A DNA stretch of 58,745 nt from the IMG/VR virus record IMGVR_UViG_2531839662_000025; one strand, given 5' to 3'. Source of the stretch: a virus. Taxonomy: Duplodnaviria; Heunggongvirae; Uroviricota; Caudoviricetes. Of this stretch, positions 6,368-36,931 are shown piece by piece. The stretch's first letter is position 1. Every line of letters starts with the position of its first letter. A program made the position numbers and the translations under genes. The notes beneath the pieces are model-generated. The model ran no database searches and was not told where the DNA came from. It saw only the letters and a list, made by a program, of their open reading frames with translations.

Positions 6368-6372
6368 GATTT

Positions 6373-9349: not shown

Positions 9350-9362
9350 ACTGTCTCCACTA

Positions 9363-9390
9363 TAAAAAAACCGCCAATTTCTGGCGGCTT
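9363..9390 (-). terminator. rho-independent terminator after lipoprotein moron
   Basis: Minus-strand hairpin (CCGCCA/TGGCGG stem) followed by U-run, directly downstream of the 9396-9878 gene. Confidence 0.55.
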
Positions 9391-9395
9391 ATATA

Positions 9396-9878: not shown

Positions 9879-9945
9879 AAAACAAACTCCATTGTTAGCA
9901 TGTTACGCGATAATTTTGCCTCATCTCTCACCACAAAAAAAGAAT

Positions 9946-11895
9946 TCACCTTTTAAATGGAGAATACCCAACGTCATGGGTGATTTTCATAAAGGGATCG
10001 CCTGTTTTCGGCAAATCGATGACACGCATTCCCGGCGGCGCGTTGTCAAACGTCACCTTAAGTTCGCTGCGGGTTGCCGGTGACGATGAAAGGCTTAACA
10101 GTTGATTCCTTTCCAGTGATACATTCGGGATGTAGCGTTTATCTGGAGATAAATACCCATCACCACGTGGCATCTGCCATCCGGTCATGTCATAGACAAA
10201 ATCATGGAACTGTTTGCCCCACTCGTCGAACTTATCATTCAGACCAAATCCACTATTCAGTGCATCAGCCACAAAATTTTTAACAAGCCAGGGATGTTCT
10301 TTTTCAAACTCCTGCGCCATCATGCCCAGTTCAAGCAATCCACCAATCAGACTGATCTTACCAAGCCCCTTTAATTTCAGCGCCGTTTTTCCTGCCGCCG
10401 TTGTCCATTGATTCTGGGCGACTGTTGCTGCACGAATGGCTGCCACCGCTTTCACACCAATATACAGGGCAGAAACCGTTGCTATTGTTTTTACTGCCTG
10501 TTCCCATCCCCCCATTGCCCTGACAACCTGATCAACCTCCTGCCAGACTTTTTTCACAACCGGCCCGACCGTTTCCCAGTTGTCAATAATGAGATACGCC
10601 CCCGCTACCAGTAACGTAATGAGTCCCTTTGCCGGTGTCATATTCATCACGCTACCCATGATTTTTGTTATGCGTGTCAATGTGCCAATCGCCACGCCCA
10701 TCGTCAGTAATGCCGCACCAGTTTTCGCGATGGTTTTTACGACATCAGGATTTTCTCTGACAAACGTGCGCACTTCTTCCAGAAAAGGCTTCATCTCTTT
10801 TATGCCTTCATTGATTGAAGGCAGGAAGGTTTCCCCCAACGTGGAAGAAATCGCATTGATCTGGTTCTGCAGCAGCAACAACTGATTTTCCGTCGTCGCG
10901 GCACGGGCGGCATATTCTTTCTGCATTGAGCCGCCATACTGCTGCGCATCCGCCACACGATTAAAATTGGTTCGCAACAAATCCAGATTCGTGAGCAGCG
11001 GCGCAATGGCTCCCAGAGACTCCTTCCCGAACAGCGCATTAAGCACAGCAGCCTGTTTTTCTTTCGGCACTTTCGCCAGAGAATCCAGTACGTGCAGCAT
11101 GGCCCCACGGGCGTCTTTCTGCATATCCGCCGCCAGTTTTTTCGGGTCAATGCGCAACAGGCGAAGCGCTTTTTTCTGCGATTTGGTGGCAGAATTCCCC
11201 GCAGTCAGCGACAGCATAAAATTCTTTATCCCCGTCGCAGCAATTTCTGATTCCACCCCCATTCCGGCAATGGTTGCCCCCATTGCGGCAATCTCTCCGG
11301 AGGCCACACCCGCAACACTGCCTAAAGGGCCAATACGGGTCACAACATCAGAAATCTTTTTCGCACTCGCAGGACCGGTATTACCAAGATAGTTAATCTT
11401 GTCCGCAAGCCCTGCCACCTCTCCCTGTGTCAGTTTAAAGGCAGTGCGCCACTGTGCCATCATCTGACCGGATTCTTCCGCCGTGGTGTCAAAGGCCACC
11501 CCCATCTTCACGGCGTCGTCAGTAAACTGCATCAGCTCGTCACGGGCGATGCCAGCCTGACCACCCGCCGCCACGATTTCGGCGATACCTTCCGCCGACA
11601 TGGGCAGTTCTGTTGACAGGTCGCGCACCTGTTCCGTCATTGCCTTAAACGCTTCCGGCGTATCCAGACCATCCACCACTTTCCGGACATCCGCCATTTT
11701 TGATTCAAGGGCAATGGCAGATTTGACCGGGAGCGCCAGCGCCCCCAGTACTGCGGTTCCGGCACCCGCTGCGCCCAGTGACAGGCTGGCAAACTCCTTT
11801 TTAAAACCTTTCAGCTGGCGCTGCATTCCCTTCAGCGGTGCCGATACCTTATCCACGGCAGTGATGATCGCCTTCAGCTGAAAACTGTCAGCCAT
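9946..11895 (-). CDS. tail tape measure protein
   Basis: 649-aa Ala/Gly-rich ORF between tail chaperone and N-like gene. Confidence 0.8.
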   Translation of the reverse strand: MADSFQLKAIITAVDKVSAPLKGMQRQLKGFKKEFASLSLGAAGAGTAVLGALALPVKSAIALESKMADVRKVVDGLDTPEAFKAMTEQVRDLSTELPMSAEGIAEIVAAGGQAGIARDELMQFTDDAVKMGVAFDTTAEESGQMMAQWRTAFKLTQGEVAGLADKINYLGNTGPASAKKISDVVTRIGPLGSVAGVASGEIAAMGATIAGMGVESEIAATGIKNFMLSLTAGNSATKSQKKALRLLRIDPKKLAADMQKDARGAMLHVLDSLAKVPKEKQAAVLNALFGKESLGAIAPLLTNLDLLRTNFNRVADAQQYGGSMQKEYAARAATTENQLLLLQNQINAISSTLGETFLPSINEGIKEMKPFLEEVRTFVRENPDVVKTIAKTGAALLTMGVAIGTLTRITKIMGSVMNMTPAKGLITLLVAGAYLIIDNWETVGPVVKKVWQEVDQVVRAMGGWEQAVKTIATVSALYIGVKAVAAIRAATVAQNQWTTAAGKTALKLKGLGKISLIGGLLELGMMAQEFEKEHPWLVKNFVADALNSGFGLNDKFDEWGKQFHDFVYDMTGWQMPRGDGYLSPDKRYIPNVSLERNQLLSLSSSPATRSELKVTFDNAPPGMRVIDLPKTGDPFMKITHDVGYSPFKR

Positions 11896-11979
11896 GCTTC
11901 ATCTCCTCGTTAATGCGGACGGCCTCGGCTTCCAGTTCTGTAAACTGCGAAATAGCCACCCGTCGCAGCTCCAGTGGAT

Positions 11980-12309
11980 TCAGTTTCCAGAACCAGGCAA
12001 CATTGTAGAGTCGTTTCCGGAGGTGCTTCCCGTCTCCGACTGGGTAAAAAAACGCAGGATCTGCATGCTGGTCTTAAAAATATCCAGTTTTGCCATCTGC
12101 GCCGCCGATGAACGCGGGATCCCCGCCAGCAGCGGGATATATTTCAGTGCCACCTGGCTGTCCAGTTTTATACTGCCCTCACCGGAAATAATGAAAGGAA
12201 AACCCAGGGCCTCGATTTCGTCATACGTGGGTTCACGCAACTCCAGCACATGCAGCGTTTCGTTATGCGCTGTCACCGGTTTTTTTAAAACAATTTCTGT
12301 CACGCTCAT
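11980..12309 (-). CDS. tail assembly chaperone (Mu gp41-like)
   Basis: 109-aa ORF between tail tube and tape measure. Confidence 0.5.
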   Translation of the reverse strand: MSVTEIVLKKPVTAHNETLHVLELREPTYDEIEALGFPFIISGEGSIKLDSQVALKYIPLLAGIPRSSAAQMAKLDIFKTSMQILRFFTQSETGSTSGNDSTMLPGSGN

Positions 12310-12665
12310 TACTGATATCCTCCCTCTTCGCCGTGAAATTCAAGATCTGCCGTACCTTCTTCGGCATTATGGTTTGCTTCGCCATGCAGCCAGGCCGCCG
12401 AAAGCACATACACCATGCCGTTTGCCAGCTCGGCAGTAATCGTCATCTGGTCTGAGGTGGTAATTTTGTCGACCGGAAAATTTTTGGGCACTTTAAACGT
12501 GCCCTTAACGTAAGGTGACCGCCAGGTCTCCTTGTAATCCACATCACCAGCCATGCCGACGACATCATCCCGGACATTGGTGTTCATCGGCACTTCAATG
12601 CCACCTGTCAGCGATAACTGCTGACCATCCACTTTAAAAAAACAGGTTCCGGCGATCTTTGCCAT
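12309..12665 (-). CDS. tail tube protein
   Basis: 118-aa ORF immediately after sheath gene. Confidence 0.7.
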   Translation of the reverse strand: MAKIAGTCFFKVDGQQLSLTGGIEVPMNTNVRDDVVGMAGDVDYKETWRSPYVKGTFKVPKNFPVDKITTSDQMTITAELANGMVYVLSAAWLHGEANHNAEEGTADLEFHGEEGGYQ

Positions 12666-14161
12666 TATGCTGACTCCTCTGAATACTGGAGACGGAACTG
12701 GTTAACCACCGCAAAGACACGTAACTGGTTAACATAATCCGGCGGGAACAGCGTGTTCAGTCGGTTCGGGTTATCCGCATCACGTTCAACTATCAGATAC
12801 TGTTTAAACAGATCGTAATTTTCCACAATACCGGCACGCTCCATCTGACGATATGTCGCCAGAAGCTCCCCTTTGATAACGGCAGGAGTAACAATCGCCT
12901 GCCCAGGACCAAAACGGGTACCATCATTTGCCAGCTTGTGGCGTCCGTACTTGCTTGTGATGACCGATTTCAGTTTGCGAAGAACATATGCGCTGGTATG
13001 CAGTGTTTCACTGTCCAGATAGCTGTTGTCTGCCACGCCATATGCATTCTTTTTGTATGTGGTTACGGAACGCTGGATCCGCAACGTGCCGCCTTCCACA
13101 TAAGCCGTCGCCACGCCGTGAGATAAAAGGGTCTGCTGCTCTGTCATGATGAATCGCTTACCTTTCGGTGCCGGAAGCATCCCCACCAGTTCCCCCGTCT
13201 GTGTCGGACGGGCCGGATCATTGCGGATAAATACCGCTTCACGGGCAAGGCGACTGGCAACCAGTTCATCGACAGGCGACTGGGTTTCTTTTTCGTAACC
13301 GGCAAGCGTGATATGTTGCTGATTATGCATATCTCCGGCATCAACCAGCTCTGACAGCGTTCCCAGTTTTGCGGTATAGACATGCCCGTATAACTGGCGC
13401 GCATAACTCCAGCGACCGCTGCTGTCATTCATTTCGGTCATCATCATATTGATGGAGGCGGCATCGTTGAACGGCAGACCGATAAAGTCGAATGCCTCAT
13501 CGCCCATAGCAGCAACAGCGGCAGTAAGATCAGGCGCGCCACTACCCGCAGTTCCGGCTTCCGTCACAACCTGAAGCCCCGCAGGCAGAATCTCACCACC
13601 ACCAGAACCATAATAATTCAGGCAGACAGGCAACTCGTTACCATACAGCCCCTTATGGCGGGCAGTCAGCGTCACCACACCTGCATCAGATGACGCCGCA
13701 AACGGCAGGGTGATAACCCCGTTTACCGCTTCCTTAATCGCGGTGGCAACCGCAGTAGCATCATCGCCATTCACCACAGGCACCTGTACACGGTAGCGCC
13801 CGACATACAGACTCAGGGTGCCGCTTTCCTCTGCTTCTCCGGTAACTGTCACCCTGACCGTCGCCGCCGCCCCTTTGGCTTCCGGTACTGCAATAACATA
13901 CAGTTCACCGAAAGGATCTGTCTGACGGTAGACGTCAACCATACGCGCCAGCTGGCTCCCGGCCCCACAAATCTGACGGGCATAATCTGCCGACGGCATC
14001 AGCACCAGGCTGTTAACCTCAATGGCGGCATCGTTGCTGGCATGCCCGATCAATAATGCAGGCGCGCTGGTCACTGCTGTATTTGCCGCAGAATTGTCCA
14101 TCTCGGCGTAAAACAACGGCACCAGCGTATTCGACGGAACAGCACTAAAACTTATTGTCAT
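12665..14161 (-). CDS. contractile tail sheath protein
   Basis: 498-aa ORF; Mu L-like sheath size and position. Confidence 0.85.
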   Translation of the reverse strand: MTISFSAVPSNTLVPLFYAEMDNSAANTAVTSAPALLIGHASNDAAIEVNSLVLMPSADYARQICGAGSQLARMVDVYRQTDPFGELYVIAVPEAKGAAATVRVTVTGEAEESGTLSLYVGRYRVQVPVVNGDDATAVATAIKEAVNGVITLPFAASSDAGVVTLTARHKGLYGNELPVCLNYYGSGGGEILPAGLQVVTEAGTAGSGAPDLTAAVAAMGDEAFDFIGLPFNDAASINMMMTEMNDSSGRWSYARQLYGHVYTAKLGTLSELVDAGDMHNQQHITLAGYEKETQSPVDELVASRLAREAVFIRNDPARPTQTGELVGMLPAPKGKRFIMTEQQTLLSHGVATAYVEGGTLRIQRSVTTYKKNAYGVADNSYLDSETLHTSAYVLRKLKSVITSKYGRHKLANDGTRFGPGQAIVTPAVIKGELLATYRQMERAGIVENYDLFKQYLIVERDADNPNRLNTLFPPDYVNQLRVFAVVNQFRLQYSEESA

Positions 14162-14319
14162 GATTCTTTAGCCTTATCCTGTTTAACACGTACCACATCA
14201 CCCGCCGCTATACGGCGGAGCCAGTAGCTGTTTTCTTCCACATTTCGCCCGTCAGAAGGCAAAAGGTCTCCACGGGCAGGGTCAGGAACCGACCGCCCTT
14301 TCAGGGGTTTCACAAACAT
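14158..14319 (-). CDS. small conserved phage protein (53 aa, Mu gp38 position)
   Basis: Hand-translated ORF absent from track (under 60 aa): MFVKPLKGRSVPDPARGDLLPSDGRNVEENSYWLRRIAAGDVVRVKQDKAKES; stop overlaps sheath start (ATGA). Confidence 0.45.
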   Translation of the reverse strand: MFVKPLKGRSVPDPARGDLLPSDGRNVEENSYWLRRIAAGDVVRVKQDKAKES

Positions 14320-14328
14320 GAGGGACTC

Positions 14329-14892
14329 TTATTTCTGAGGGAAACTCATTTCCAGATGGTGCTCAAAGTCACCATCCGGGCCAGTACCAGGATCAATGTA
14401 ATCCACATCAATACTCAGCAGAGATAAATCCGGCAGAGCATTCACGTCCTCTGCCTGTCGCGTGTCTTCTTCCGTGATTTCATACTTCGCCGTAAAATCA
14501 AACTGGTAATACAGTTCGTAACGGTTCAGATCCAGCAGCGTGCCACCGGCATAAACAATCTCGCCCCCCTGCGGGTCCGGCATCCACCCAAGCAGGGCTT
14601 TCCAGAGTTCTCTACGGACATCATGAACGGCGTCATAGGCTGCCCACTGCCCTTTTTCATCACGCTCATTGCTGAGCACAACAATAACGGAGAAGCCTTC
14701 TGTCAAATCCTGCCAGTAATCGGTCTGTGATTTTTGTTCCCCCGGCGCATCGTCAGAGGGGACAACATAGGCAGCAGGCAGACGCAGTTTTCCGGCATCA
14801 GGGATCGCCTTAAACTGCGCTGCACCACCAACACGATTCTCAAAACGCGGGCATCGCTCACGCAACGCCGCAATTATTGTTGTCAGTTTCAT
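14329..14892 (-). CDS. virion/tail-completion protein (Mu gp37-like)
   Basis: 187-aa ORF between neck genes and sheath; function inferred from position. Confidence 0.45.
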   Translation of the reverse strand: MKLTTIIAALRERCPRFENRVGGAAQFKAIPDAGKLRLPAAYVVPSDDAPGEQKSQTDYWQDLTEGFSVIVVLSNERDEKGQWAAYDAVHDVRRELWKALLGWMPDPQGGEIVYAGGTLLDLNRYELYYQFDFTAKYEITEEDTRQAEDVNALPDLSLLSIDVDYIDPGTGPDGDFEHHLEMSFPQK

Positions 14893-15452
14893 TTATGCTT
14901 CCTTTTTACCGGACGTAACGAACACTGCAACTCACGGGACAACAGTTCCTGCGTCCAGTGACGCCGCCGCTCAATAACGTCAGCCATAAAGTTATTACGC
15001 GGAGCCAGCCGGAAAGCCGAAGAATGGTGCTTCTTCTGCCGCTTATCCTTTTTATCCATTCCATAAGCTGAATGGCGAACGCCGTAATACAGAAATGCCG
15101 GATAATAGGGTGCGCCTTCAGGGAAACGGCGATTCCCCTGCCCGTTTTTCTGGTTAGGAGAAATTTTCACCATCAGTCCGGGGCGACGCGTCGTTTTTTT
15201 GGGAACGTAATAACCGATGGAGCGGGCCAGACGCCCGGTCTGATATCCCGGGTTCTCTCCCGGACCGGATCGTCCGCGTTTAATCACCAGACGTCTTGCG
15301 TCGCGCATATAGACGCGCCCGATCTGCACAAATGCCCGACGCAGACGGGCGCGATTAAACTCCAGCTCCTTTGGTTGTTTAAAGTCGACGTGTAAAAATG
15401 CTGTCTGATTCATGGCATTCACCCCGTCGTCGCGCTGTACGCAGTTCTTCAC
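14889..15452 (-). CDS. neck protein (HK97 gp10-like)
   Basis: 187-aa basic ORF in head-tail joining cluster. Confidence 0.45.
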   Translation of the reverse strand: MKNCVQRDDGVNAMNQTAFLHVDFKQPKELEFNRARLRRAFVQIGRVYMRDARRLVIKRGRSGPGENPGYQTGRLARSIGYYVPKKTTRRPGLMVKISPNQKNGQGNRRFPEGAPYYPAFLYYGVRHSAYGMDKKDKRQKKHHSSAFRLAPRNNFMADVIERRRHWTQELLSRELQCSLRPVKRKHK

Positions 15453-15828
15453 ATTCCAGCAATAAAAAACGCCGCTGACCGTTCAGGTCGCGTATTCGCC
15501 GGATCCGGTACTCCTGACCGTAATAAACCACCTCATGATCTGCCGTGATGTCGTGACGGAAACGGATCGTAAAATAATGCGTAACGATATTTTCTGTCTG
15601 CACTGAGCCCTGATAAGCGGCAGCGCCTGGCTGAGCCACCTTTGCCCAGACATCAAACGACTCCGTATATGTCGGCTCCGTACCAAAATCAGCGGTGGGT
15701 TCATCCACCCGAAGGCGGATCTTTATTCGGCGATTCAGCTCTCCGGGATCCGGTAAAAGGTAAGTGGCACTGGTCTGACTTTGCCTGATTTTCATAGCGG
15801 GACAATCCTGTAAGGGCCAGCAAGCCAT
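15379..15828 (-). CDS. head closure / head-tail adaptor protein
   Basis: 149-aa ORF following gp6-like connector. Confidence 0.5.
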   Translation of the reverse strand: MACWPLQDCPAMKIRQSQTSATYLLPDPGELNRRIKIRLRVDEPTADFGTEPTYTESFDVWAKVAQPGAAAYQGSVQTENIVTHYFTIRFRHDITADHEVVYYGQEYRIRRIRDLNGQRRFLLLECEELRTARRRGECHESDSIFTRRL

Positions 15829-16115
15829 CTGAAACTCATTGGCGTTTCCAGCTTCTCCACATCGGTGATCGTTGAGCGATTTTCATAAAAATGACTGACC
15901 AGCATCAGCATTGCCAGACGAACATCATCAGTCAGATGCATCCCGTCAGGATCGTCTTCCGGAATCGTCTCTTCCGGTGCATACAACTTCCTGTTCAGGT
16001 ATGTCTCTGTTCTTTTCTGTACCGCCTGTGCCAGCAGTTTCAGAAAATCGCCGTCACTGTACAAACCATCATCGAGCCGGAGGTGAGATTTAATTTCCTC
16101 TTCTTTCAGGAGCAT
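15792..16115 (-). CDS. head-tail connector protein (gp6-like)
   Basis: Track ORF 15792-16136 uses a TTG start; a strong AGGAGG then ATG at 16115 is the likelier start. Confidence 0.6.
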   Translation of the reverse strand: MLLKEEEIKSHLRLDDGLYSDGDFLKLLAQAVQKRTETYLNRKLYAPEETIPEDDPDGMHLTDDVRLAMLMLVSHFYENRSTITDVEKLETPMSFRWLAGPYRIVPL

Positions 16116-16161
16116 ATTTTCCTCCTGTGCCCGCAATTACGCGGGCACAAAAAAAACCGCA

Positions 16162-17385
16162 TTACGCAGCGGCTTTCTGGCGGGTTGCAGCCCCAATTTT
16201 CATCAGCTTAATCGCCTGAGAATCCACCAGCATACCGCCGGTTCGCTTGGTGGTATAAAAACCCACAAACGGTTTATTGGTGTACGGATCGCGCAGGATA
16301 CGGGTACCGATGCGATCAACGATGGTATAGCCACGTTTGAAGTTACCAAACGCAATGGCTTTTGCATCGGCAGCAATATCCGGCATCTGTTCATTCTCAA
16401 CGATGCCATACCCTGCCAGAGAAGAAGGCTGACCCAGCTCAATACCCGGACGCCACAGATAATTTCCGTCGTTATCCTTCAGCAGACGAATGGCAAACAG
16501 GCTGCTGTTGTTCATCATGAACTTCGCGCCGCTGCGATGCGCCTTGCGCAGGGTGTAAATCAGTTTAATGATCGCATCGGCAGTCACGCCGGAAGCCGCA
16601 CCGGAAGCAATGTGCTGAAGTTTGCCAAACGCACGGGTCTTGTCATCTTCATCGGTGGACTCGTAAGCCAGAAAACCTTTTGGTTTTTTGCTGCCGTCGC
16701 CACTGGTAAAGGCAATTTCTTCCTGTTCGGCAAATTCCAGCGCCAGCTCACTGTTGATCCAGTCTTCCACATTGAAGAAAGCGTCATCGAGCATTTTCTG
16801 GGTGGCCTGCGGGTTGCCGTAGATTTCCCCCATAAAGGGTTCAATCAGACCTAGTTTTGATGTGGCGGTTTCCGGACGAGCATCCGTTTCCCCCACCCAT
16901 CCGGACGTTGTGCCGCCCAGATTTACCAGTTTTTTATAATCCGAGCCACCGAGGGTGATCACAGTGGCTTCCTGGCGCATCACCACCTCATCTTTCAGCA
17001 ACGTCAGAATAGTGCGGTCCAGTTCTTCCGGAATGGCATAACCACCATCTTCATCATTGCCCACCTGCATCGCCTTACGCTCAAGCTCACGCAGGCCATC
17101 TTCACGCCCCTTACGCATAAATCCGATAAACGCTTCTTTATGTTCACCGGCAACTTTATTTTGCGTGCCGCCTGCCGGACGCTTGACTTCAGCCAGTTCA
17201 GCTTCAAGATCGCTTTTCAGATTTTCCAGTTCAGCCAGTTTTCCGTTGAGGGTTTCCACTTCACCAGCAAGTTTTCCCTTTTCCTGCTCGATCGCGTCGA
17301 TACGTTTGTCGTTTTTTGCCTTAAAATCGTCAAACTTCCGCTGCAACTCCTGCGCGACCTGTTCCACATCTTTAACATCAGCCAT
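16162..17385 (-). CDS. major capsid protein (HK97 fold)
   Basis: 407-aa ORF with N-terminal coiled-coil delta-like domain, downstream of prohead protease. Confidence 0.85.
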   Translation of the reverse strand: MADVKDVEQVAQELQRKFDDFKAKNDKRIDAIEQEKGKLAGEVETLNGKLAELENLKSDLEAELAEVKRPAGGTQNKVAGEHKEAFIGFMRKGREDGLRELERKAMQVGNDEDGGYAIPEELDRTILTLLKDEVVMRQEATVITLGGSDYKKLVNLGGTTSGWVGETDARPETATSKLGLIEPFMGEIYGNPQATQKMLDDAFFNVEDWINSELALEFAEQEEIAFTSGDGSKKPKGFLAYESTDEDDKTRAFGKLQHIASGAASGVTADAIIKLIYTLRKAHRSGAKFMMNNSSLFAIRLLKDNDGNYLWRPGIELGQPSSLAGYGIVENEQMPDIAADAKAIAFGNFKRGYTIVDRIGTRILRDPYTNKPFVGFYTTKRTGGMLVDSQAIKLMKIGAATRQKAAA

Positions 17386-17941
17386 TATTTTCTCCTGGTT
17401 AAAATTTAAGATTTTTCAGTGCATTCAGTGCGGCATCCACATCCTCAGCATCACGCAGGGATAAAGCGCCATATCCCCCGGCCATGAATGCTTTGGCCTG
17501 GGTTCGCGAGAGTCCAACATCGCGCAGGACCCGCTCAATAATTTTCTGATCAGGGATCTCCCCACGCGCCAGCGCATTTTTCACATCGCTGATGCGTGCT
17601 TCATCATTGGAAGGAAACGTCACCAGACTGACCTCCCACAGGTCGATCTCTTTCAGCAGGAATACCCCTTTTTCCCGGTCGTACTCCCAGTCTTTCAGGA
17701 TGTAGCCAATAGAAAGGCCGGTTAAAGAACCGGCCTTCATATGGGCATGTGCACGTTTTGCCAGGGGATCATCATCAACGAGTAATCGCCCCCTGACATA
17801 AAGCCCGACATCATCTTCTTTCATTTCGGTGTACACACCGATGGGCTCATCCATGCGGTGCTGCCAGAGCAACGCAGGCAGCGCCTTTTTTTCGCTCCAT
17901 TTCTGGAGTGTTGTGGTAAAGGCACCGGGGACCACCACATC

Positions 17942-18102
17942 ATCGTGGCTGTCCTTAACACCAAAAACAGAACCGTAACCTTACAAACTTCCCCGGAATC
18001 ATCGTACTAACTTCGTATAATGTATGCTATACGAAGTTATTACGATCGTGGCTGTCCTTAACACCAAAAACAGAACCGTAACCTTCAAACTCCCCGGAAT
18101 CA
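17942..18102. repeat. ~60-bp direct duplication of protease coding sequence flanking the lox site
   Basis: 17942-18001 and 18045-18102 are copies of the same sequence; upstream copy has two single-base insertions. Confidence 0.85.
18007..18040. other. loxP recombination site (33/34 match to P1 loxP)
   Basis: CTAACTTCGTATA-ATGTATGC-TATACGAAGTTAT: exact loxP spacer (inverted orientation) and right arm, one mismatch at outermost base of left arm. Confidence 0.85.
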
Positions 18103-18129
18103 CTGACGGATTTCAGGTTCAGCGGTATA

Positions 18130-19371
18130 TCAAGACGCTGTTTTGTCTGCATCTCCACTCTCCTTTTTCTTACCGTTGTCATCGCCAGCAGAGGGACTGG
18201 TGGTCATGTTCATCGGAGTCAGATACACATCACCGCCCGGTCGGGGATTCATATCCTCCAGATCACGGCAGTCATTAGGGGAATAAATCCCCCAGTTGAT
18301 CCCCGTGGCATACGCTTCAAAGCGGGATTTCATGTCGCCACGCAACAATGCTCCGGCATTAAATTTGGCGTAAAATTTTCCCTGCTTGCTCTCCCTGACC
18401 AGCCCTGTATTGATCCGCTGCTCAATACGGGTCAGATACGGCACAAGGGAATAGTTAATGAAACCAAGCCCCAGCTCTTCAATATTGTTGAAGGTGGCAC
18501 GATCGGTGTTCTGCACCATATGCAGCGGCACGCGGAACATGCGACAGATTTCTTCCAGCTGAAACTTGCGGGTTTCCAGGAACTGGCTGTCCTCGGCATT
18601 CAGTGCCACCGTTTTCCAGTCCAGCCCCATTTCCAGAATCATCGGACGATGAGAGTTTCCCAGCCCGACATGCCGTTCCTCAAAATCCTTTTTGATACGC
18701 GCATAAGCCTGGTCAGAAAGTTGTTGATCCGTACGCAACACACCGGATGTTACCGCGCCATTGCCAAACAATCTGGCACCATGCTCCTCGGTTGCCGCTG
18801 CCAGTGAAATGGCCTCGCGCGCATATGCAATGGGATTCAGACCGACAAGTCCATCCAGCGTCAGGGTACGCACATGCCAGATTTCATTCTGGGTCAGCAC
18901 ATCCACAGAACCATCCGGAAACGTCACCTGATAAACCGGCTGCCACTGGCTGTTCAGCTTCGGTTCCACACAGCCCGGATCTATCGGAAGAAGCTCCACC
19001 ACTTCCCCCAGTGCCTTTACCTTGTAGGCGTAAAAATTACCCCGCAGACACAGGCAGACGATAACCAGTTCCCAGAATTCCTGCGGCGTCATGTAGCCAT
19101 TGGGTTTTGCCGAAATCAGCTTATGCAGTCGTTCATCCACTGCCCGTGTTTTAAGAGTGCCGGTGATTTTGTAGAGGCTGCAGGGCAGCATACCAACAGA
19201 CTCCGCCAGCACCCTGACGCAGGAATACACCGCCGTCAGCCGCATGGCCCGCTGACTGCTGATCCGCTTTCCGGTATAGGTGTCGTATGACAACCCAAGT
19301 TCTTCCGCAAGTATCCCGGGCGTTGTGACGGGGGTATTATTTTTACGTTGAAAAAGCCCCTGGAAAAACAT
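18130..19371 (-). CDS. portal protein (HK97 family)
   Basis: 413-aa ORF upstream of protease and capsid genes. Confidence 0.85.
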   Translation of the reverse strand: MFFQGLFQRKNNTPVTTPGILAEELGLSYDTYTGKRISSQRAMRLTAVYSCVRVLAESVGMLPCSLYKITGTLKTRAVDERLHKLISAKPNGYMTPQEFWELVIVCLCLRGNFYAYKVKALGEVVELLPIDPGCVEPKLNSQWQPVYQVTFPDGSVDVLTQNEIWHVRTLTLDGLVGLNPIAYAREAISLAAATEEHGARLFGNGAVTSGVLRTDQQLSDQAYARIKKDFEERHVGLGNSHRPMILEMGLDWKTVALNAEDSQFLETRKFQLEEICRMFRVPLHMVQNTDRATFNNIEELGLGFINYSLVPYLTRIEQRINTGLVRESKQGKFYAKFNAGALLRGDMKSRFEAYATGINWGIYSPNDCRDLEDMNPRPGGDVYLTPMNMTTSPSAGDDNGKKKESGDADKTAS

Positions 19372-19553
19372 TACTCACCTCCGGAGGCGACCCAGTGACC
19401 ACGATCGAGATAACGCGCAACCAGCCACGACCAGCACAGGCACAGCCCCCCGGCAACAACAAAACCTGCCGGGGGATAAATCAGCCATGTGCCATACGAC
19501 AGCAAAAGCGCCCCCAGCACGCCCACCAGTGGCGTGAGAATTATCAGAAACAT
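19371..19553 (-). CDS. small hydrophobic membrane protein
   Basis: 60-aa ORF with two predicted transmembrane stretches between terL fragment and portal. Confidence 0.4.
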
Positions 19554-19564
19554 AATGACCTCGG

Positions 19565-20290
19565 TTAAAGCGAGCGAATACCAACGCTGACCAGATGCTC
19601 AGACAGATCCGGCTCCGGTTCACCGCCATTGACCAGCATCCGGCTCATTGCTGTAAACATCGCAACAGGACCGTCGATTTTGGCTTCCGGCGTGGATTTA
19701 TTCGGGAAGATATTGTTGTTTTTGTCCGGTTTCACCGTAACGTTAGACATCATCCAGTTCATGACCGGGTGATTGCTGTGGTGGAAACGTCCGGCATAGA
19801 CCAGTGATTCCGTTTCCTTCATGGCCTCTGACAGATTGCGGACCGTCTGCGGAACTTCCACCAGCGGTATACCTTCTTCAGCCAGCGCCAGACTGAACTG
19901 CATTGCGCTCCACGGGTCAAATCCCAGTTCCCTGAGGTTTTCACCGCCAATCCATTCCAGTAAGTCACTTTTTATCTGAGCATGATCGATAACATCACCA
20001 TCCGTCAGGATGAGCTTATCCATCTCCGCCCACTTCCGGTAAAGTTCTGCCTGCTGCCGCGAGCATCGCTCCAGCCGTCCTTCCGGAAGCCAGAATTTAA
20101 AATCAGCATGAACATGTCCGTTATCGGTTCGCCAGAGTTTTGCCGCCGCACAGATATCAATCTTATGAGCAAGGTCGACGCCGACCCACATGGGATATGT
20201 TTTCAGCTCATGTTGTGGAGCAATGTATTCGCACTTCTCCCACTTAATCATATCCATCCAGGCAGATTCGGCAGTGACCCACACATTCAT
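19565..20290 (-). pseudogene. terminase large subunit, C-terminal (nuclease) fragment of the host prophage
   Basis: 241-aa ORF aligns by eye with the C-terminal third of the intact TerL at 20817-22478; N-terminal two thirds lie 15 kb away at 35283-36303. Confidence 0.8.
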
Positions 20291-20293
20291 GTG

Positions 20294-20309
20294 TTTGGTA
20301 AGAATATTT
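20294..20309. repeat. putative att core (left junction of satellite)
   Basis: TTGGTAAGAATATTTC; imperfect direct repeat of TTGGTAAAAAAATTC at 35276-35290, located at the terL break point. Confidence 0.5.
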
Positions 20310-20397: not shown

Positions 20398-20582
20398 GTA
20401 TCTGTATTGTTTTAATGCTGATACACACCGTTTTTTGATACAGTGATTCGACCTACCATCGCGAAGCATTTTTTATTTCTTGTGTGTAACAATCTGACGA
20501 GGTGAGCACTCAAAGAGATAAGAGGCAGTAGAAATTTCGATCCCCCCTGAATGCAATTTTTCGTATATATATACAAAACAGT

Positions 20583-20741
20583 GCGGGTTATGCGGGTTAG
20601 CGGGTTATCTTCGCGTGCTAAGTATTTTTTACTCTTTAATATCAATACGTTAAAAAACAACGTATCTAAATATCAGCCAGAATGTAACCCGCAAGACATT
20701 CAAAATAACCCGCAAACACCACTCAAATAACCCGCAAAAAC
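20583..20741. repeat. iteron cluster (GCGGGTTAT motif), three direct plus three inverted copies around an AT-rich spacer
   Basis: Direct copies at 20584, 20593, 20602; inverted copies at 20686, 20706, 20728. Confidence 0.7.
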
Positions 20742-20816: not shown

Positions 20817-22478
20817 TTACACACCATCAAACGTCGCAAGCCGCTCTTTGTGGCTGTCGCTCATATCGAATGCAAATTCCTCATGCTCTGCCTGGAATGT
20901 GCCAAACGCCATCAGCGCCGCAACGCTCGGGTCTATCTTGTTGGATGATTTTTTCTTGTTCGGCTTGATATTGGCGTTCGCGTCACTCTGCATCACAACA
21001 TTACTCATTGACCAGGCCAGCACCGGATCACCACGATGCACAATCACCTTCCGGTTAACAAAAACTTCGAACGATTTCGCCGCCGGACTGAAACGAAGGT
21101 ACGTTTGCGGGAACGGCTCCACCTCAAATCCTGCGCCCTGTAGCTGCGTCCTCAGGTGCGTGGCGTTCCATGTATCGAAACCCACCAGCCTGATATTGAA
21201 ATTCTCTGCATCCGCCATGATGTCATCACGGATACGGTCATAATCAATGCAGTCACCCGGTGTTGTGCGTATCCAGCCCGCCTTTACCCACTGGCGATAG
21301 ATGGCGCGGTTTTTATTGGCGGGGTTCTGTAGCTGAAATTCCGGCAGATAGTGACGGGAAACCAGCATAATCTTTTTACCGACCGGAAAGGCATAGCACA
21401 CGCTGGAAATATCGCTGGTTGATGATAAGTCCAGCCCCGCGTAGCACTCCTGCCCGTATAAATCCGCCTCCGCGAACGTTCCGGCGCACTCCGCCCATGC
21501 ACCGTTACCCATCCACGGCGTGGCCCCCTGACACCAGATATTGAATCGCTTGGTGAGCATTTCCACCCACTGCGACGGAATACCCCGCGCTTTCTGGATG
21601 GTTGAGGCCAGTTTTTCACGATCGACGGAAACATCGATATTGGGATTCGCCTTTATCCACATCGCCGGATCGTCAACCTCGCTTTCATCATCCAGCTCGT
21701 AAATCAGCACGAACATGGATTCGTTCACCTCTTCACCATCCAGTATCTGGCAGCAATAGTCGTAGTGTTGTTTACAGGCTGAAACAACGTTGCTCCCCGA
21801 TGTGGTGATGGCAAATAATAACCCCTCCGGACGCGCCCCCATTCCCAGTTCAAGCGCGGAATAAACCCCGTTGTCAGGGTGCAGGTGATATTCATCCACA
21901 ATGGCAAGACTCGGGTTTGTACCTTCAATGGTTGCCGCTTTTGCTGCCAGTGGCTTTAACAGGCTGTTGGTTTTCGGGTGTATCACCTTGTGTGCCTGAA
22001 TATTTACCCGCTTTCGCAACGGTCGGGATAAAAGGCACATCTGACGCGCATCATCAAACACGATCCGCGCCTGATCACGACTCACGGCGGCGGTGTAAAT
22101 ATCCTGCTGCCCGTTTTCCATAACCAGAAACCAGTTAGCCAGGATAGCGGCGACCGTGGATTTGGCATTTTTTCGCGGCACTTCAATGAATGCGCTGGTG
22201 TATTTGCGCCGTCCGGTGGCCTTAACCTTAAAGCCCAGGATGCACGCAAAGGCGAACTGCTGCCACGGCTCCAGCTCAATGGGGCTACCGCGCATTGCGC
22301 CTTTTACGTGCGGACACACCCTGGAAAAGGCAATAAACCGCTCCACGACCTCCGGATCGAACGTGTAAAGGGGGTTTTCAAGGTCAGAAAAATACCGTTT
22401 AACGGCCTGTTTCAGTCGTTTACAGGCCGTAATTTTGCCGTTTTTTACGCCTTCTGCGTACTCATGCCAGGCGGTCAA
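20817..22478 (-). CDS. terminase large subunit (satellite-encoded, intact)
   Basis: 553-aa ORF with ATPase and nuclease halves. Confidence 0.85.
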   Translation of the reverse strand: MTAWHEYAEGVKNGKITACKRLKQAVKRYFSDLENPLYTFDPEVVERFIAFSRVCPHVKGAMRGSPIELEPWQQFAFACILGFKVKATGRRKYTSAFIEVPRKNAKSTVAAILANWFLVMENGQQDIYTAAVSRDQARIVFDDARQMCLLSRPLRKRVNIQAHKVIHPKTNSLLKPLAAKAATIEGTNPSLAIVDEYHLHPDNGVYSALELGMGARPEGLLFAITTSGSNVVSACKQHYDYCCQILDGEEVNESMFVLIYELDDESEVDDPAMWIKANPNIDVSVDREKLASTIQKARGIPSQWVEMLTKRFNIWCQGATPWMGNGAWAECAGTFAEADLYGQECYAGLDLSSTSDISSVCYAFPVGKKIMLVSRHYLPEFQLQNPANKNRAIYRQWVKAGWIRTTPGDCIDYDRIRDDIMADAENFNIRLVGFDTWNATHLRTQLQGAGFEVEPFPQTYLRFSPAAKSFEVFVNRKVIVHRGDPVLAWSMSNVVMQSDANANIKPNKKKSSNKIDPSVAALMAFGTFQAEHEEFAFDMSDSHKERLATFDGV

Positions 22479-22818
22479 GCTCGTCCTCTTCCTCTGTTTC
22501 CGGTGGATTTCTGCGGCGACTTACCGGGTCAAAACCCAGCAAAGAAGCCATTTTGATCATTATTCTTTCCGCGTCAGCCTTTGCGCTCAGGGCGGGGTTT
22601 CTGCTCTCGCTGCCCTGACTGTTAACAATGCTGAACCCGCGCGTGGCAAGGTCTTCGACGGCTTTGCGGTATATGGAGTAGTTAACGCAATACAGCTCCA
22701 GATTGCTCCAGTCGGCGGGGGTAAGGTCTTCCCGTCCGGAAAGCTGGCGCGATTTTTCCTTCCACTGCCTGACCGCGATTTCATCCAGGTAAGCGGGGGC
22801 TTTTGGTGGTCTTGCCAT
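22462..22818 (-). CDS. terminase small subunit (P27-family-like)
   Basis: Track ORF 22462-22959; likely start MARPPKAP at 22818; upstream of TerL. Confidence 0.65.
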   Translation of the reverse strand: MARPPKAPAYLDEIAVRQWKEKSRQLSGREDLTPADWSNLELYCVNYSIYRKAVEDLATRGFSIVNSQGSESRNPALSAKADAERIMIKMASLLGFDPVSRRRNPPETEEEDELDRLA

Positions 22819-23106
22819 GTTCTTTTTTCGCCCAATTATTTTCAAAAAAAATCCCGTGCACAAAAATTTGAGGAGGCGGTCGGTGTCCGGCAGGGACGGT
22901 TTCGTCCTGAAAACCTCCCCCACCCCCTCTGACAGCCTCACCAGCGATTGCGAAAACATTCCATGACCTCGCGGTCACGGTCGGTTAATCGCTTCGCTGT
23001 GGTGCGTTCTGTGCGCCCTGTCCTGTTAGCTTTGTGCCCTGTCTCCTGTGTCTTCCATAAGTCACGCTGCCTTATCAGTCCACGTATCAGCCTGTTTTGC
23101 TCCTGT

Positions 23107-23547
23107 TCAGTCATCATCGCCATACATCCAGTCGTTACGATGTGCCGCCCGTTCTTCCTGCTCGCGATACATACCCGCCTTACGGTTCGCTTTCGTGGCT
23201 GGATCTTCCCGTGTCGTCTTACGGTTGTGGCACGTCTGGCACAATGCCTGGTGGTTCCACTCAGGCCAGAAGAGAACATCACCGCCGCCATTGATGGGAA
23301 TGATGTGATCCACCACAAGAGCTGGCGTATAAATCCCCTTAGCCAGACAACGCACGCATAACGGGTTTTTGCTCAGGTACAGGGCGCGGTATTTGTCCCA
23401 CTGTCGGGAATACCCGCGCGCGCGGCGGTGTCCCCGTCTGGCATCCTCTGCACGCCATGCAGCCCGCCTGTGCTCTTCACACTTGCCGGACTTCACGCGC
23501 TTATTACAGCCCGGCTCAGTGCATCGCCTTAATGGTTGCCACGGCAT
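23107..23547 (-). CDS. HNH endonuclease (packaging-associated)
   Basis: 146-aa ORF with Cys and His motifs, adjacent to TerS as in HK97-like cos phages. Confidence 0.75.
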   Translation of the reverse strand: MPWQPLRRCTEPGCNKRVKSGKCEEHRRAAWRAEDARRGHRRARGYSRQWDKYRALYLSKNPLCVRCLAKGIYTPALVVDHIIPINGGGDVLFWPEWNHQALCQTCHNRKTTREDPATKANRKAGMYREQEERAAHRNDWMYGDDD

Positions 23548-23846
23548 CAGTACACCCCCACATCACGATAAACCGACCAGAGCGCAGAAATAGCCATAGG
23601 CAGTTCAGACTGCTCCACTGGTGAAACTGCTTCCCTGTTCTCGTACAGGAAAGCGATGTACATCAGGCAACCAACACGCATTGCCGGGGTAAATTCCAGC
23701 CCGTCTTCAAAACGTTTCCCGATATGCTTCTGGCAGGCTTCCAGCGCCGCATCGGTATACATTTTCAGAAGTTCGCCTTCTCCGGAAAAGTCATCAAGGC
23801 GAAGATGTGCCCTGACCTCATCAGGTGTAATTTTTTCTTCACTCAT
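23547..23846 (-). CDS. head-tail connector protein (gp6-like)
   Basis: Track ORF 23547-23927; likely start MSEEKIT at 23846. Confidence 0.6.
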   Translation of the reverse strand: MSEEKITPDEVRAHLRLDDFSGEGELLKMYTDAALEACQKHIGKRFEDGLEFTPAMRVGCLMYIAFLYENREAVSPVEQSELPMAISALWSVYRDVGVY

Positions 23847-25053
23847 CTTTTTCACCTTTAATTTCCACCGTCTGCTTCCATGCCTGGCTGAATTCGTCGC
23901 CACCTTCGCGCGGCGGCATCCCCTCACGTTCGCGGGCTTCGTTCGGATTCATGATCCCGTTCTTAATCCCTTTCTCATACGTGGCGTAACGCTCGGTAGG
24001 GGTGGCGCGCAGTAAATCGGCTGAATCAAACTCAACCAGATAACGGGTACCAGGTACGGGAGAAGCCACCAGCAAAGCGGCCTTGATTTGCTGTTCGAAG
24101 TTCGCCAGCCACGGACGCATTGTCATAGTCAGAAACGCGCGGCTTGCCTCACTGAAATTGCTGTAGGTGCTGTTGCTGTATTCCTGAAGAAAAATCGGCG
24201 ACACGTTGAACATACGGGCAATGTCTTCAATGGAGAAGCGACGGGAGGCCAGCCATTCCGCATCCTGGTTACTCATCCCCAGTTGCCTGTAATCCATGCC
24301 CCCTTCAAGGATTGGCGTTTTTCCGGCATTTTTCGCCCCCTTATAGCGTTCCAGAGCATCTAATGCCTGTTTACCTTTCACGCCGTCCAGCCATTCGCCT
24401 GACGTGATAATCCCTGCCGCCATCATGCCATCTTTCATAATGCTGGCTCCGTGGCGCTGTTGAGCAAGGCCAAGCCCCAGCGCCTCACGGCAAATCGTGA
24501 CAGGGGAGCGCCCCAGAAAGCCATCATCCGAGGCATAGCGGAGATGCAGAACTTCTTCCTGTAAATACGTGCGTACCGTTCCTGTATAGGGTTCGGTGAT
24601 GGTATAGCGGTATTTGTGTGCGCCTGTGCGTTCCGGTACAACACACCCCGGCGCATAAGGATGAAGTGATTTTGGCTGACCGTCCCGCCCCCACTCAATA
24701 ACCGCATAGGCGTTACCGTTCAGCAGGCAGTGACGCATCATTGTGCGTTTAAACTGGTAAGGTGTCTGGCACGAATTAGGCTGCTCATTCAGCAGAATAT
24801 CGACCGGGTGACTGTCCAGCCATTCCCGCGCCTCCCTGCCCTTGTCATTGCGTACCAGATACAGATAACACGGCATCGTGGCCACCGCCTCAGCGATGAC
24901 AGAAACCGCGTTCATCACAGCAGGCAATGATTCAGCCGTCCCGGCAGAAACATATTCTCCGGATCCGGTATTCGGTACGCCGGACAGCGCCAGAAAATCA
25001 TCAATGGACAGGTTACGCAGATCGCTTTTTTTACGACTAAAAGGCCACCACAT
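23839..25053 (-). CDS. portal protein (satellite-encoded)
   Basis: Track ORF 23839-25143; likely start at 25053 abutting protease stop. Confidence 0.8.
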   Translation of the reverse strand: MWWPFSRKKSDLRNLSIDDFLALSGVPNTGSGEYVSAGTAESLPAVMNAVSVIAEAVATMPCYLYLVRNDKGREAREWLDSHPVDILLNEQPNSCQTPYQFKRTMMRHCLLNGNAYAVIEWGRDGQPKSLHPYAPGCVVPERTGAHKYRYTITEPYTGTVRTYLQEEVLHLRYASDDGFLGRSPVTICREALGLGLAQQRHGASIMKDGMMAAGIITSGEWLDGVKGKQALDALERYKGAKNAGKTPILEGGMDYRQLGMSNQDAEWLASRRFSIEDIARMFNVSPIFLQEYSNSTYSNFSEASRAFLTMTMRPWLANFEQQIKAALLVASPVPGTRYLVEFDSADLLRATPTERYATYEKGIKNGIMNPNEAREREGMPPREGGDEFSQAWKQTVEIKGEKDE

Positions 25054-28843: not shown

Positions 28844-30964
28844 TTAATCTTCTGCCTCAGGCTGGAACATCAGCACGTAAAAAACATGCTGCTTCCCCCC
28901 AATTTTGCCGAGCGCCTTTTTCTTGTAACGGCGATCGTTACCCGCTTCCAGCATTCCGGCAGCACTCAACGCGCGGGCAAAGTGAGACGGATTAAATCCC
29001 TGTGCTATCTCACCCTCAAATACATGCGGGAACGTGTAAAAACGGAACTCGTCATCTTCGTTTCTGATACTCCCCTTTCTGTATCCGGCAAGCTCTTTAA
29101 TCGGTAAATCACGCTCGTCGGTGTTGGGCCACGGAAGGTATCTGCTGAATCCGAACGACGCTAAAAAAGCCTCTGCCTGTTCAACCATCTGTTTAAACTC
29201 CCTGTTACCCGTGCCGAACTCCTTCACCCAGGCATTAAAATTATGCTGAATGGCATCGCGGCACGCCTGAACATCCCAACCAGTAATATGGACGGAAAGC
29301 ACCAGCGCCGACTCCAGCATGGCGAATCGTTCCCCCACACGGTGAACCTGTTCGCCGTAACTCTCCGGTATCAGGTTGCGCCACCGTTCACGGCATGCCC
29401 TTACCGTATCCTTTGCCTCCTGCTGGTGGTCTGCCAGCCATTTAACCCATTCACGCCCCGCCGCCCCGTGATTTTCTGTCCAGGCATCCTTTAACGCGTC
29501 TGCGTGTGCCTTTCCGGTGCTGTATTCGTGAAACTGCGTGGCTTTTTCCATTGGCACGTTAAGCAGGCGGACAAGCTGCCCCGCCTTGACTTTTATCCCC
29601 TCCGTTTTGAGGAATGTCTCAACGTCCATTTCTCCGGTGCTGATTGCCACCGTGCGCCAGTGTTTGATCTCCCTGTTGCCGCCGTCCTTCGCCCCCTGTA
29701 ATTTCCCCGAACCGTTAAACAGCGTATAAGCCGACGTGGACACTTCCCGCGCGTTTCCGGCCTGACCTATTTCATCTAGGGGTAATAGCCCGTCATTGTG
29801 CGCCTCTGCCTCGTTGGCGATGCCTAACGCTGTACCGTACCAGGTCAGCCGTTGCGCGTCCGGCTCTCCCCATAAACTGGATGCGATGTTCTGTGTGGTG
29901 GTTTTCCCTGCCGATGACTGTTCGAAAAGATGTACCCCGAAGCCGTCAGCGCCCACCAGCCCGATTAATGGTGCAGATAACGATACCGCCACACCCAGCA
30001 TCATGGACGGATTACCACCAGCCAGCCGCGCAACGGTATCGCGCCAGCCCTCCGCCGTTCCTGCCACGGAATAACCATTAACAGCAGCCGTTTTTCCGGT
30101 AAACAGGACTGGCTTTTCGCAATCACCAATGACCGAACCGTCCGGCATGATGTACGCGCCAAAATGCCAGCCCGTTGTTGTGCTTAACTGCCATTCCTCA
30201 TGGTTTCCGCTTAACTGCATCCAGTCAGCCAGGATAGCCCTGTATTTGCCGTTGGTTGTCACGTTCAGGCCGTGGTCTTTCAGCAACCGCCAGCCGTCAC
30301 GGTCGCCAATGCCACCACATGGGATCGCCATTGTGATGACTTCATGGTTTGCTGGCTTTTTCCAGCGCATCACGCGGTAATGCTCTTTACCGATCGTCCC
30401 CGTTCCCAGTAGTTCAAGCGGAGAACATAACCACGTCTCAGGCCGGATAATTTCGCCTGACTGCTTGTCCACTTTTGGCGTTACCCAGAAAACACCATCG
30501 GCGCGGCTTTCAACGCGGGGCTTTAATTCATCATCGCCCTGGCTTTCTGTGATTTTTTTCTTTAAGGGCAACACCAGACTTTCCCCGCGCTCGTATTCGT
30601 CTTTCAGTCGGGCAAGCTGTGGTGTCCAGTCCTCCAGTAAATCGCCGTTCTCGTCACAAAAACAGGCTTCCTTAACACCAGCCACTGCCAGCAGGGTTTC
30701 AATCTGTAGCGCCAGTTTGTCATCCAGTTTTCCGGCACGTCTGACGATGGCGCGTGACCGACCATCATCCACAATACGCAGGTTTTCCAGATTACCCAGG
30801 TCACGCCGTCCGAGATAAACAGGTGGTATTTTGTCGCCGCGCTTTCTGGCTTCTCCGCCCTGCATGTAATGCTCTGCATGGCTGTATGCGTCATCCCCCG
30901 CAAAAATCACTGCATCCTCGCCTTTATCTTTCGGTAACAGTTTTACGTTCGGTGCCAGTTTCAT
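28844..30964 (-). CDS. primase/helicase (P4 alpha-like replication protein)
   Basis: 706-aa ORF with Walker-type NTPase region (SSAGKTT). Confidence 0.7.
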   Translation of the reverse strand: MKLAPNVKLLPKDKGEDAVIFAGDDAYSHAEHYMQGGEARKRGDKIPPVYLGRRDLGNLENLRIVDDGRSRAIVRRAGKLDDKLALQIETLLAVAGVKEACFCDENGDLLEDWTPQLARLKDEYERGESLVLPLKKKITESQGDDELKPRVESRADGVFWVTPKVDKQSGEIIRPETWLCSPLELLGTGTIGKEHYRVMRWKKPANHEVITMAIPCGGIGDRDGWRLLKDHGLNVTTNGKYRAILADWMQLSGNHEEWQLSTTTGWHFGAYIMPDGSVIGDCEKPVLFTGKTAAVNGYSVAGTAEGWRDTVARLAGGNPSMMLGVAVSLSAPLIGLVGADGFGVHLFEQSSAGKTTTQNIASSLWGEPDAQRLTWYGTALGIANEAEAHNDGLLPLDEIGQAGNAREVSTSAYTLFNGSGKLQGAKDGGNREIKHWRTVAISTGEMDVETFLKTEGIKVKAGQLVRLLNVPMEKATQFHEYSTGKAHADALKDAWTENHGAAGREWVKWLADHQQEAKDTVRACRERWRNLIPESYGEQVHRVGERFAMLESALVLSVHITGWDVQACRDAIQHNFNAWVKEFGTGNREFKQMVEQAEAFLASFGFSRYLPWPNTDERDLPIKELAGYRKGSIRNEDDEFRFYTFPHVFEGEIAQGFNPSHFARALSAAGMLEAGNDRRYKKKALGKIGGKQHVFYVLMFQPEAED

Positions 30965-35275: not shown

Positions 35276-35290
35276 TTGGTAAAAAAATTC
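35276..35290. repeat. putative att core (right junction of satellite)
   Basis: TTGGTAAAAAAATTC at the point where the host terL reading frame is lost. Confidence 0.5.
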
Positions 35291-36785: not shown

Positions 36786-36931
36786 AATCGGTTTTACCTA
36801 TCAATCGTTTGATCGCATTCCCAAAAAAAGTTTTCGAACCTGCGGCGATGCGAAGAAGGGTTGGCGGGCGGTCCCGGACAGCCAGGGTTGCAGGGATTTG
36901 ACCCGCCCCTCCCCACAAGTGAGAATAATTA

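Follow-up and report, generated by a model that had tools for sequence, protein, structure and literature searches.

The window, 58,745 nucleotides of E. coli chromosome, comprises a prophage and a satellite seated inside it, and the minus strand carries every relevant gene of both elements. Between 17 and 40 kb the window shows 99.6% identity to a region of E. coli strain UMNF18. The prophage has lambdoid early genes and a contractile tail, and its packaging genes are arranged in the order HNH, gap, TerS and a terL gene that is split in two (Table 1). The satellite, with 14,981 bp between the att cores, lies between the two terL halves, and alignment to the intact phi467 terL places the break at codon ~342. 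An uninterrupted terL of 585 aa is found in 10 of the 18 viral contigs with an identical prophage cos junction (described below); because the same prophage type has the intact gene in these contigs, the satellite insertion is polymorphic. The sequence GTGTATTGC is repeated close to both satellite ends.

The satellite carries genes for an integrase, for regulators, and for a DUF927 primase and an SSB. The structural genes code for a major capsid protein, a protease, a portal, and one connector, and the packaging genes for HNH, a 61-aa ORF, TerS, and TerL, all of them its own; genes for tail or lysis proteins are absent from the satellite, as judged from the annotated UMNF18 counterpart. The published definition of capsid-forming PICIs (cf-PICIs) fits this element (10.1101/2022.09.08.507074), as its size is within 10–18 kb, the integrase, regulator, and primase genes and the set from capsid to TerL are present, and tail and lysis genes are absent. 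The split of terL and the location of all genes on the minus strand are those of a helper-embedded PICI. As a cf-PICI lodged in a prophage terL, the satellite follows an arrangement that is already known. A single connector gene of the Ad1 type (23547-23927, minus strand) is placed between the portal and HNH genes of the satellite, and O157-type relatives have two. The tail of the surrounding prophage (1-19500) is contractile, whereas the cf-PICIs characterised so far use the non-contractile tails of siphoviruses.

Table 1. Location of the packaging genes, att cores, and putative cos elements in the window, with the evidence for each.
Feature	Coordinates	Strand	Evidence or remark
Prophage terL, 5' part	35276-36303	-	Pfam TerL_ATPase and first 68 positions of TerL_nuclease
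Prophage terL, 3' part	19565-20301	-	Pfam TerL_nuclease positions 64-283; alignment to phi467 terL
attL core TTACCAA	35276-35282		
attR core TTACCAA	20295-20301		
Prophage HNH endonuclease, 116 aa	36932-37282	-	Pfam HNH PF01844, E 6e-16; 99.1% to phiP27 L34
Prophage putative cos region, non-coding	36786-36931	-	between HNH and terS; nhmmer match 36819-36918, E 8.5e-13
Prophage G-box GGGGAGGGGCGGG	36902-36914	-	13/13 to phiP27 and SfI
Prophage core CGCCCGCCAA	36861-36870	-	predicted cohesive end; 8/10 to phiP27 cos
Prophage TerS, 160 aa	36303-36785	-	Pfam Terminase_4, E 4.5e-26; 99.4% to phi467 TerS, only 20% to phiP27 TerS
Satellite HNH endonuclease, 146 aa	23107-23547	-	Pfam HNH PF01844, E 8.8e-10; 39% to prophage HNH
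Conserved 61-aa ORF	22938-23123	-	WP_001251183; phrog_3173, E 2.7e-29
Satellite putative cos region, non-coding	22819-22937	-	between small-ORF stop and terS start; nhmmer match 22852-22927, E 7e-6
Satellite G-box GGGGTGGGGGAGG	22914-22926	-	10/13 to phiP27/SfI G-box GGGGAGGGGCGGG; same 31-nt distance to core
Satellite core CGACCGCCTC	22873-22882	-	predicted 10-nt cohesive end; in register with SfI and phiP27 ends
TerS-side flank of satellite core	22819-22872	-	CTCAAATTTTT, then GTGCACGGG, T-run, GAAAATAA; candidate TerS-binding (cosB-like) part
Satellite TerS, 118 aa, intact	22462-22818	-	frame check; Pfam Terminase_4, E 1.6e-23
Satellite TerL, 553 aa	20817-22478	-	Pfam TerL_ATPase and TerL_nuclease (PF03354 and PF20441)
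Third, diverged cos-like site	20456-20549	-	after satellite terL, beside iterons; nhmmer match 20468-20547, E 1e-5
Core equivalent of third site TGCTCACCTC	20499-20508	-	

Layout and relatives of the two HNH-terS gaps

The original prediction described both elements as having the order HNH, non-coding gap, TerS, with gaps similar enough to be putative cos sites. The order is correct for both, each having a co-oriented HNH, a short non-coding gap, TerS, and TerL, but the satellite gap, given as 22819-23106, is not non-coding throughout. The 61-aa ORF, which stands between HNH and the gap in the HNH module of the satellite, fills most of it, and the true non-coding stretch is limited to 22819-22937. 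No Pfam domain was matched in this ORF. Throughout this satellite family the ORF sits between HNH and cos, and its 3' end (FRNRW stop) stands before every satellite-type cos found. It might correspond to the 'hypothetical gene 1792' of EcCIEDL933, an element whose transfer dropped when that gene was lost. The satellite TerL shows 29–33% identity to the two TerL fragments of the prophage, over which the PF03354 and PF20441 domains are spread.

Read along the coding (minus) strand, the two gaps share a common register with no indel, consisting of a 13-nt G-box, a 31-nt spacer, a 10-nt GC-rich core, and a flank adjoining terS. The G-box (GGGG-A/T-GGGG) is found 31 nt ahead of the core at both gaps, with 13/13 matching positions in the prophage and 10/13 in the satellite. 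The motif strings on which the likeness had been noticed by eye are located as described: GGCGGTCGGTGTCCGGCAGGGAC at 22875-22897 of the plus strand, followed by the C-rich CCTCCCCCACCCC at 22914-22926, in the satellite, and GGCGGGCGGTCCCGGACAGCCAGGG at 36863-36887, followed by the C-rich CCCGCCCCTCCCC at 36902-36914, in the prophage. These strings are the core together with its HNH-side neighbour, and the C-rich tract of the satellite is its G-box seen on the plus strand. Compared segment by segment, satellite and prophage agree at 10/13 positions of the G-box, 14/31 of the spacer, and 7/10 of the core, and in the 20 nt on the TerS side at 7/20, which is the chance level. The G-box is also an imperfect inverted copy of the core (exact over 8 bp in phiP27 and SfI, over 5–6 bp in the two sites of the window), and this inverted repeat is inconsistent across relatives. 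The cosQ element of lambda resembles a cosN half-site, and a role in termination is therefore a reasonable guess for the G-box.

The similarity of the two gaps is not recovered by direct pairwise alignment: 778 of 2000 dinucleotide shuffles did as well as the local score of 17, and 428 of 3000 as well as the score of 24 obtained with softer scoring. As the direct comparison was not significant, intermediates and profiles were used, and through these the resemblance is upheld. When only the strictly non-coding parts are aligned and gaps are allowed, the satellite scores 42 against phiP27 (0 of 3000 shuffles, z 7.8) and 37 against SfI (reached by 1 of 3000 shuffles). An ungapped scan of both strands of the whole window with a 74-mer from the phiP27 cos region (background mean 18.5, standard deviation 3.8) has its best match in the prophage gap (60/74) and its next best in the satellite gap (46/74). 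For an nhmmer profile, 51 distinct cos regions of the phage type were taken from a viral contig collection, none of them from this window. Below E 1e-4 this profile has three matches in the 58.7 kb: the strongest is in the prophage gap (8.5e-13), followed by the satellite gap (7e-6) and a site at 20468-20547 (1e-5), ahead of a fourth match with an E value of 0.015. The lambda-type core GGGCGGCGACCT is absent from the window, where only a 9-nt partial match is present (at 31515).

The intermediates tie the two gaps to known DNA ends. The 10-nt cohesive end of the Shigella phage SfI, TGCCCGCCCC, was mapped by sequencing of the virion DNA ends (PMC3636060); the SfI record terminates with it, in the same register as the sites of the window. 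In the phiP27 record a 10-bp cos-site, CGCCCGCCCC, is annotated between the HNH and TerS genes, matching the place of the prophage core. The satellite core CGACCGCCTC agrees with the mapped SfI end at 7/10 positions and with the annotated phiP27 cos at 8/10. On the TerS side, the box (G/C)TC(A/G)..TTTTT followed by a ACACCCGCG-like sequence is present in the satellite, which has 14/20 identical positions to phiP27. The corresponding flank of the prophage has only 8/20 to the phiP27 box, and 19/20 to phi467.

From the HNH gene into the gap as far as the core, the prophage is 99% identical to the Stx2e phage phiP27, and the high-identity alignment ends at about position 36863, within the core. 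Being phiP27-like on the HNH side and phi467-like on the TerS side, the prophage site is a mosaic, and since the switch falls in or beside the predicted 10-nt core, the module boundary would lie at cos itself. The idea that the prophage core is a one-off recombinant was rejected, as the exact junction recurs in the 18 viral contigs mentioned above, including the 10 with an intact terL.

The combined pattern of G-box, fixed spacing, and core is found in at least 120 viral contigs, compared with ~1 expected by our own estimate. The 121 pattern matches divide into 98 of the phage type and 23 of the satellite type, and each of the 23 lies in the stretch from the small-ORF end to the terS start. 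To avoid circularity, 80 loci were gathered by the satellite TerS protein alone (84–100% identity); the cos layout is kept in 80/80 of these, and 37 of their 39 distinct variants align over 100 nt without an indel. In the relatives, the G-box with TTTTCAGGAC, the sequence CTCAAATTTTT, and the T-run with GAAAATAA are nearly invariant (the first ten bases of the G-box are invariant in 15 diverse relatives of the satellite), and a 17-nt block of the spacer is hypervariable. The core occurs in satellite relatives as CGACCGCCTC, CGACCGCCCC, CACCCGCCCC, and also CGCCCGCCCC, identical to phiP27; with several positions of the core equivalent differing from satellite to satellite, the exact limits of the core are uncertain. 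The HNH-to-terS stretch of the satellite has matches in 534 of 5426 complete E. coli genomes. For vB_KppS-Ant, a virion-derived cf-PICI of 16.5 kb, the linear record has its break inside the HNH-terS gap and, set against close relatives, is short of ~70 nt with the predicted core at their centre. A drop in coverage towards physical DNA ends would give such a break, although an effect of the assembly may also lie behind it.

A third cos-like site in the satellite

The third nhmmer match lies after the satellite terL. It is a more diverged site, with 41/74 positions identical to the phiP27 74-mer in the ungapped comparison, and its local alignment to phiP27 reaches a score of 48 (0 of 3000 shuffles), which exceeds that of the satellite's own site. 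At the same position, classical PICIs without capsid genes have near-canonical phiP27-type cos sites, for example in strains BH100 and Ec1117, where the cores are TATCCGCCCC and TGTCCGCCCC, followed by GTCAAATTTTTACACCCGCG. Other capsid-forming relatives have one or two such sites, with E values of 1e-12 and about 1e-23 in the relatives L131 and L040 (island adjoining hpt).

Two extra phage-type cos sites are found after terL in L131, at 8178-8267 and 8469-8548 (coding, reverse-complement orientation), and also in L040. Those of L131 are ~290 nt apart, and the second is almost a canonical SfI-type site (E about 1e-23). A segment of ~120 nt is duplicated in the L131-type island, with one copy ahead of each extra site. 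In the window, iterons are located around an AT-rich stretch (20582-20737), with three direct copies of TTGCGGGTTA (20685-20737) and three inverted copies of TAACCCGC (20582-20608). The 75 nt directly before the third site, including the inverted TAACCCGC copies, are 100% identical to the classical PICI of strain BH100. The iteron region may serve as a replication origin, or the repeats may be arm sites of the integrase.

The simplest reading of the third site is that the PICI backbone inherited cos sites of the helper type, and that the copy in the window drifted after the element had gained its own packaging module. A broader proposal, to which we give a rather low probability, is that the cf-PICI lineage carries, besides its own HNH-terS cos, one or two integrase-distal SfI/phiP27-like cos sites from classical PICIs. 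If this were true, packaging could follow two routes, either in the element's own small capsids or by the terminase of an SfV/phiP27-like helper and its large capsids, and the diverged third site of the window would record the loss of the second route.

Probable packaging from the two sites and alternative explanations

Judged by homology, the two gaps very likely hold the cos sites at which prophage and satellite begin packaging, in agreement with the original prediction; the support comes from the in-register homology to the mapped SfI end and to the annotated phiP27 cos. The two sites, as aligned here, descend from one known phage cos family, the satellite site being a diverged relative of the prophage site and not its copy. 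In our preferred reading, which we regard as likely on these comparisons, each site is the cos of an HNH-dependent, HK97-like packaging module and belongs to the SfV/SfI/phiP27 cos family, and each terminase acts on its own element only. In HK97, TerS bound at cos brings the motor to a stall, and cutting by TerL is stimulated when the HNH protein gp74 is present (PMC9410871). By such a mechanism, TerS would recognise the site, and the concatemer would be cut just upstream of terS by TerL with the help of the HNH protein, at cut positions that are predicted for both gaps; the 10-nt GC-rich core (CGCCCGCCAA in the prophage, CGACCGCCTC in the satellite) would turn into the cohesive end. With its own HNH, TerS, and TerL, the satellite would package unit-length 15-kb genomes from its own site. 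The HNH-side parts (G-box, spacing, and core) would be of common ancestry, while the TerS-side parts, the expected place of TerS binding, would be unrelated, and each terminase would recognise its own element only. The parts played by the G-box and the TerS-side flank are presumed.

Two readings dispense with cos altogether. The gap resemblance might be a chance product of GC-rich intergenic sequence with no shared function, as could be argued from the direct alignment, which does not rise above the dinucleotide shuffles. This is extremely unlikely, given that both gaps match a profile built from outside sequences, which has only three such matches in the 58.7 kb, that the register is identical with no indel, and that the layout is kept across the 80 relatives gathered by TerS. 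Alternatively, the motifs could be transcription signals (a late promoter, a terminator, or an RNA structure) of the terS-terL operon, in keeping with the A/T-rich, conserved flank ahead of terS and with the pairing of the G-box and the core region by RNAalifold. The homologous 10 nt are a physical cohesive end in SfI, and no promoter-like or terminator-like site is found on the coding strand of either gap, both of which make this explanation highly improbable. A structural role of the RNA or DNA was rejected, as the G-box/core pairing shows no covariation (covariation term 0.03 in RNAalifold).

The other two alternatives accept cos sites and differ in which site is used and by whom. The diverged third site could be the working cos of the satellite and the HNH-terS copy inert, considering that classical PICIs have a phiP27-type cos at exactly that position and that PICIs are reported to keep cos integrase-distally (PMC10111431). 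It is the most diverged copy, with TGCTCACCTC two positions off the L131 copy, a shortened G-box, and a broken T-run, whereas the HNH-terS site is kept in every relative and is the one at which the vB_KppS-Ant virion record breaks, so that we find this option very hard to credit. A stronger candidate, although still unlikely, is that the two cos sites are interchangeable, with the prophage terminase packaging satellite DNA or the reverse through the shared G-box and core. The 10/13 and 7/10 agreement at identical spacing, the phiP27-identical core of some satellites, and the use of helper cos by P4, some SaPIs, and EcCICFT073 (PMC6092414) speak for it. Against it stand the unrelated TerS-side flanks, TerS proteins that are only 27% identical (E 7e-8), the complete HNH-TerS-TerL set of the satellite, the mutually exclusive packaging of a related pair (below), and genomes of 15 kb and roughly 40 kb, which need differently sized capsids.

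We thus return to separate cos sites of common origin. The binding sites of the lambda small terminase are on the gene side of the cut (PMC6092414), and by likeness to lambda cosB (same source) we infer that the TerS-side flank of the satellite would bind TerS and that this flank would set specificity. In the 20 nt concerned the satellite resembles phiP27 (14/20) and the prophage phi467 (19/20), and the satellite TerS is 32–36% identical to those of phiP27 and SfI (E 1e-17 to 1e-20). Since the flanks of the two elements are unrelated and their TerS proteins are so distant, separate packaging specificities are predicted. Related packaging signals, as originally suggested, are therefore seen in the shared ancestry of the sites but not in their TerS-side halves, and the cross-packaging which that suggestion implied is less likely than separate specificities. 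Satellite and prophage probably do not package each other's DNA, the sites having diverged too far. This fits the cf-PICI EcCIEDL933 and its helper HK106, whose packaging is mutually exclusive (10.1101/2022.09.08.507074). Some room is left for recognition or cutting by a foreign TerL/HNH pair by the shared G-box and the near-identical cores, including the phiP27 core of some satellites. The prediction is that, with the HNH-side half shared and the TerS-side half not, the elements should not package each other.

Predicted cos cores are now given for a widespread cf-PICI lineage and for the prophage that surrounds it, and both elements are tied to a cos family with an experimentally mapped end. 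When such islands are annotated, their genome ends can be placed by means of these cores. A cos feature is expected for a packaging module of this type, and no current view is overturned.

Relation to known systems and state of the locus

The site is a further case of known kinds, namely an HNH-type cos site, a cf-PICI, and a helper-embedded PICI. The closest counterpart is the cos of the Shigella phages SfV and SfI and of phiP27 (10-nt end NGCCCGCCCC), with which both elements share the gene context, the G-box, and the 31-nt spacing, each having a GC-rich stretch of 10 nt as its predicted core. The left half of the prophage site is identical to phiP27, and the satellite agrees with phiP27 at 46/74 positions and shares its TerS-side box TCAAATTTTT. 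In contrast to this family, the prophage core has AA at its end in place of CC and the prophage is phi467-like on the TerS side, whereas the satellite differs by its core, by another spacer, and by the 61-aa ORF between HNH and cos. The HK97 system (TerS gp1, TerL gp2, HNH gp74) has the same order of HNH, cos, terS, and terL, and a 10-nt cohesive end (PMC9410871). The TerS proteins of the window are, in turn, of the P27/Terminase_4 family, and the HK97 biochemistry is presumed for both elements.

The cf-PICI EcCIEDL933 has its own capsid and packaging genes and island-exclusive packaging, and the satellite likewise has its own set of genes. The O157:H7 elements show ~85% DNA identity to the satellite over HNH, the small ORF, cos, and terS, with the same own-type cos layout; no cos sequence of EcCIEDL933 is given in the literature searched. 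The satellite differs from EcCIEDL933 in that it is embedded in a prophage terL and not in a chromosomal site, and in having one connector between portal and HNH, not two. Among the helper-embedded PICIs described by Tommasini, Mageeney and Williams (2023, PMC10111431), one listed insertion site falls in the large terminase gene (A:Terminase_1:245). The position in a late gene of the prophage is common to them and the satellite, which here cuts terL; the model element of that work is without terS and presumably relies on the cos of its helper, whereas the satellite has its own terminase and cos. From the satellites that borrow the helper cos (P4, cos SaPIs, EcCICFT073) it is set apart by its HNH, TerS, and TerL genes and by a cos that agrees with that of the prophage at only 7/10 positions of the core and 7/20 of the TerS-side flank. 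Islands with several cos sites have been described before (PMC6092414). The third site is integrase-distal, as are PICI cos sites, but the sites of EcCICFT073 are of the lambda type, while the one in the window is of the phiP27/SfI type and diverged.

With terL interrupted and an IS element in the early region, the prophage may be defective and its cos not in present use. The IS element is of the IS66 family (IS679, with tnpA, tnpB, and transposase), lies at ~47400-50100, and interrupts a DUF977 gene; both the element and the interruption are taken from the annotation of the near-identical UMNF18 region. In that annotation TerS, HNH, and primase are frameshifted. In the window the TerS and HNH frames are intact and the primase is one long ORF (28844-30964), and strain 2014C-3075 is 100% identical to the window over 22400-23600. 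The UMNF18 frameshifts in the three genes are probably assembly errors.
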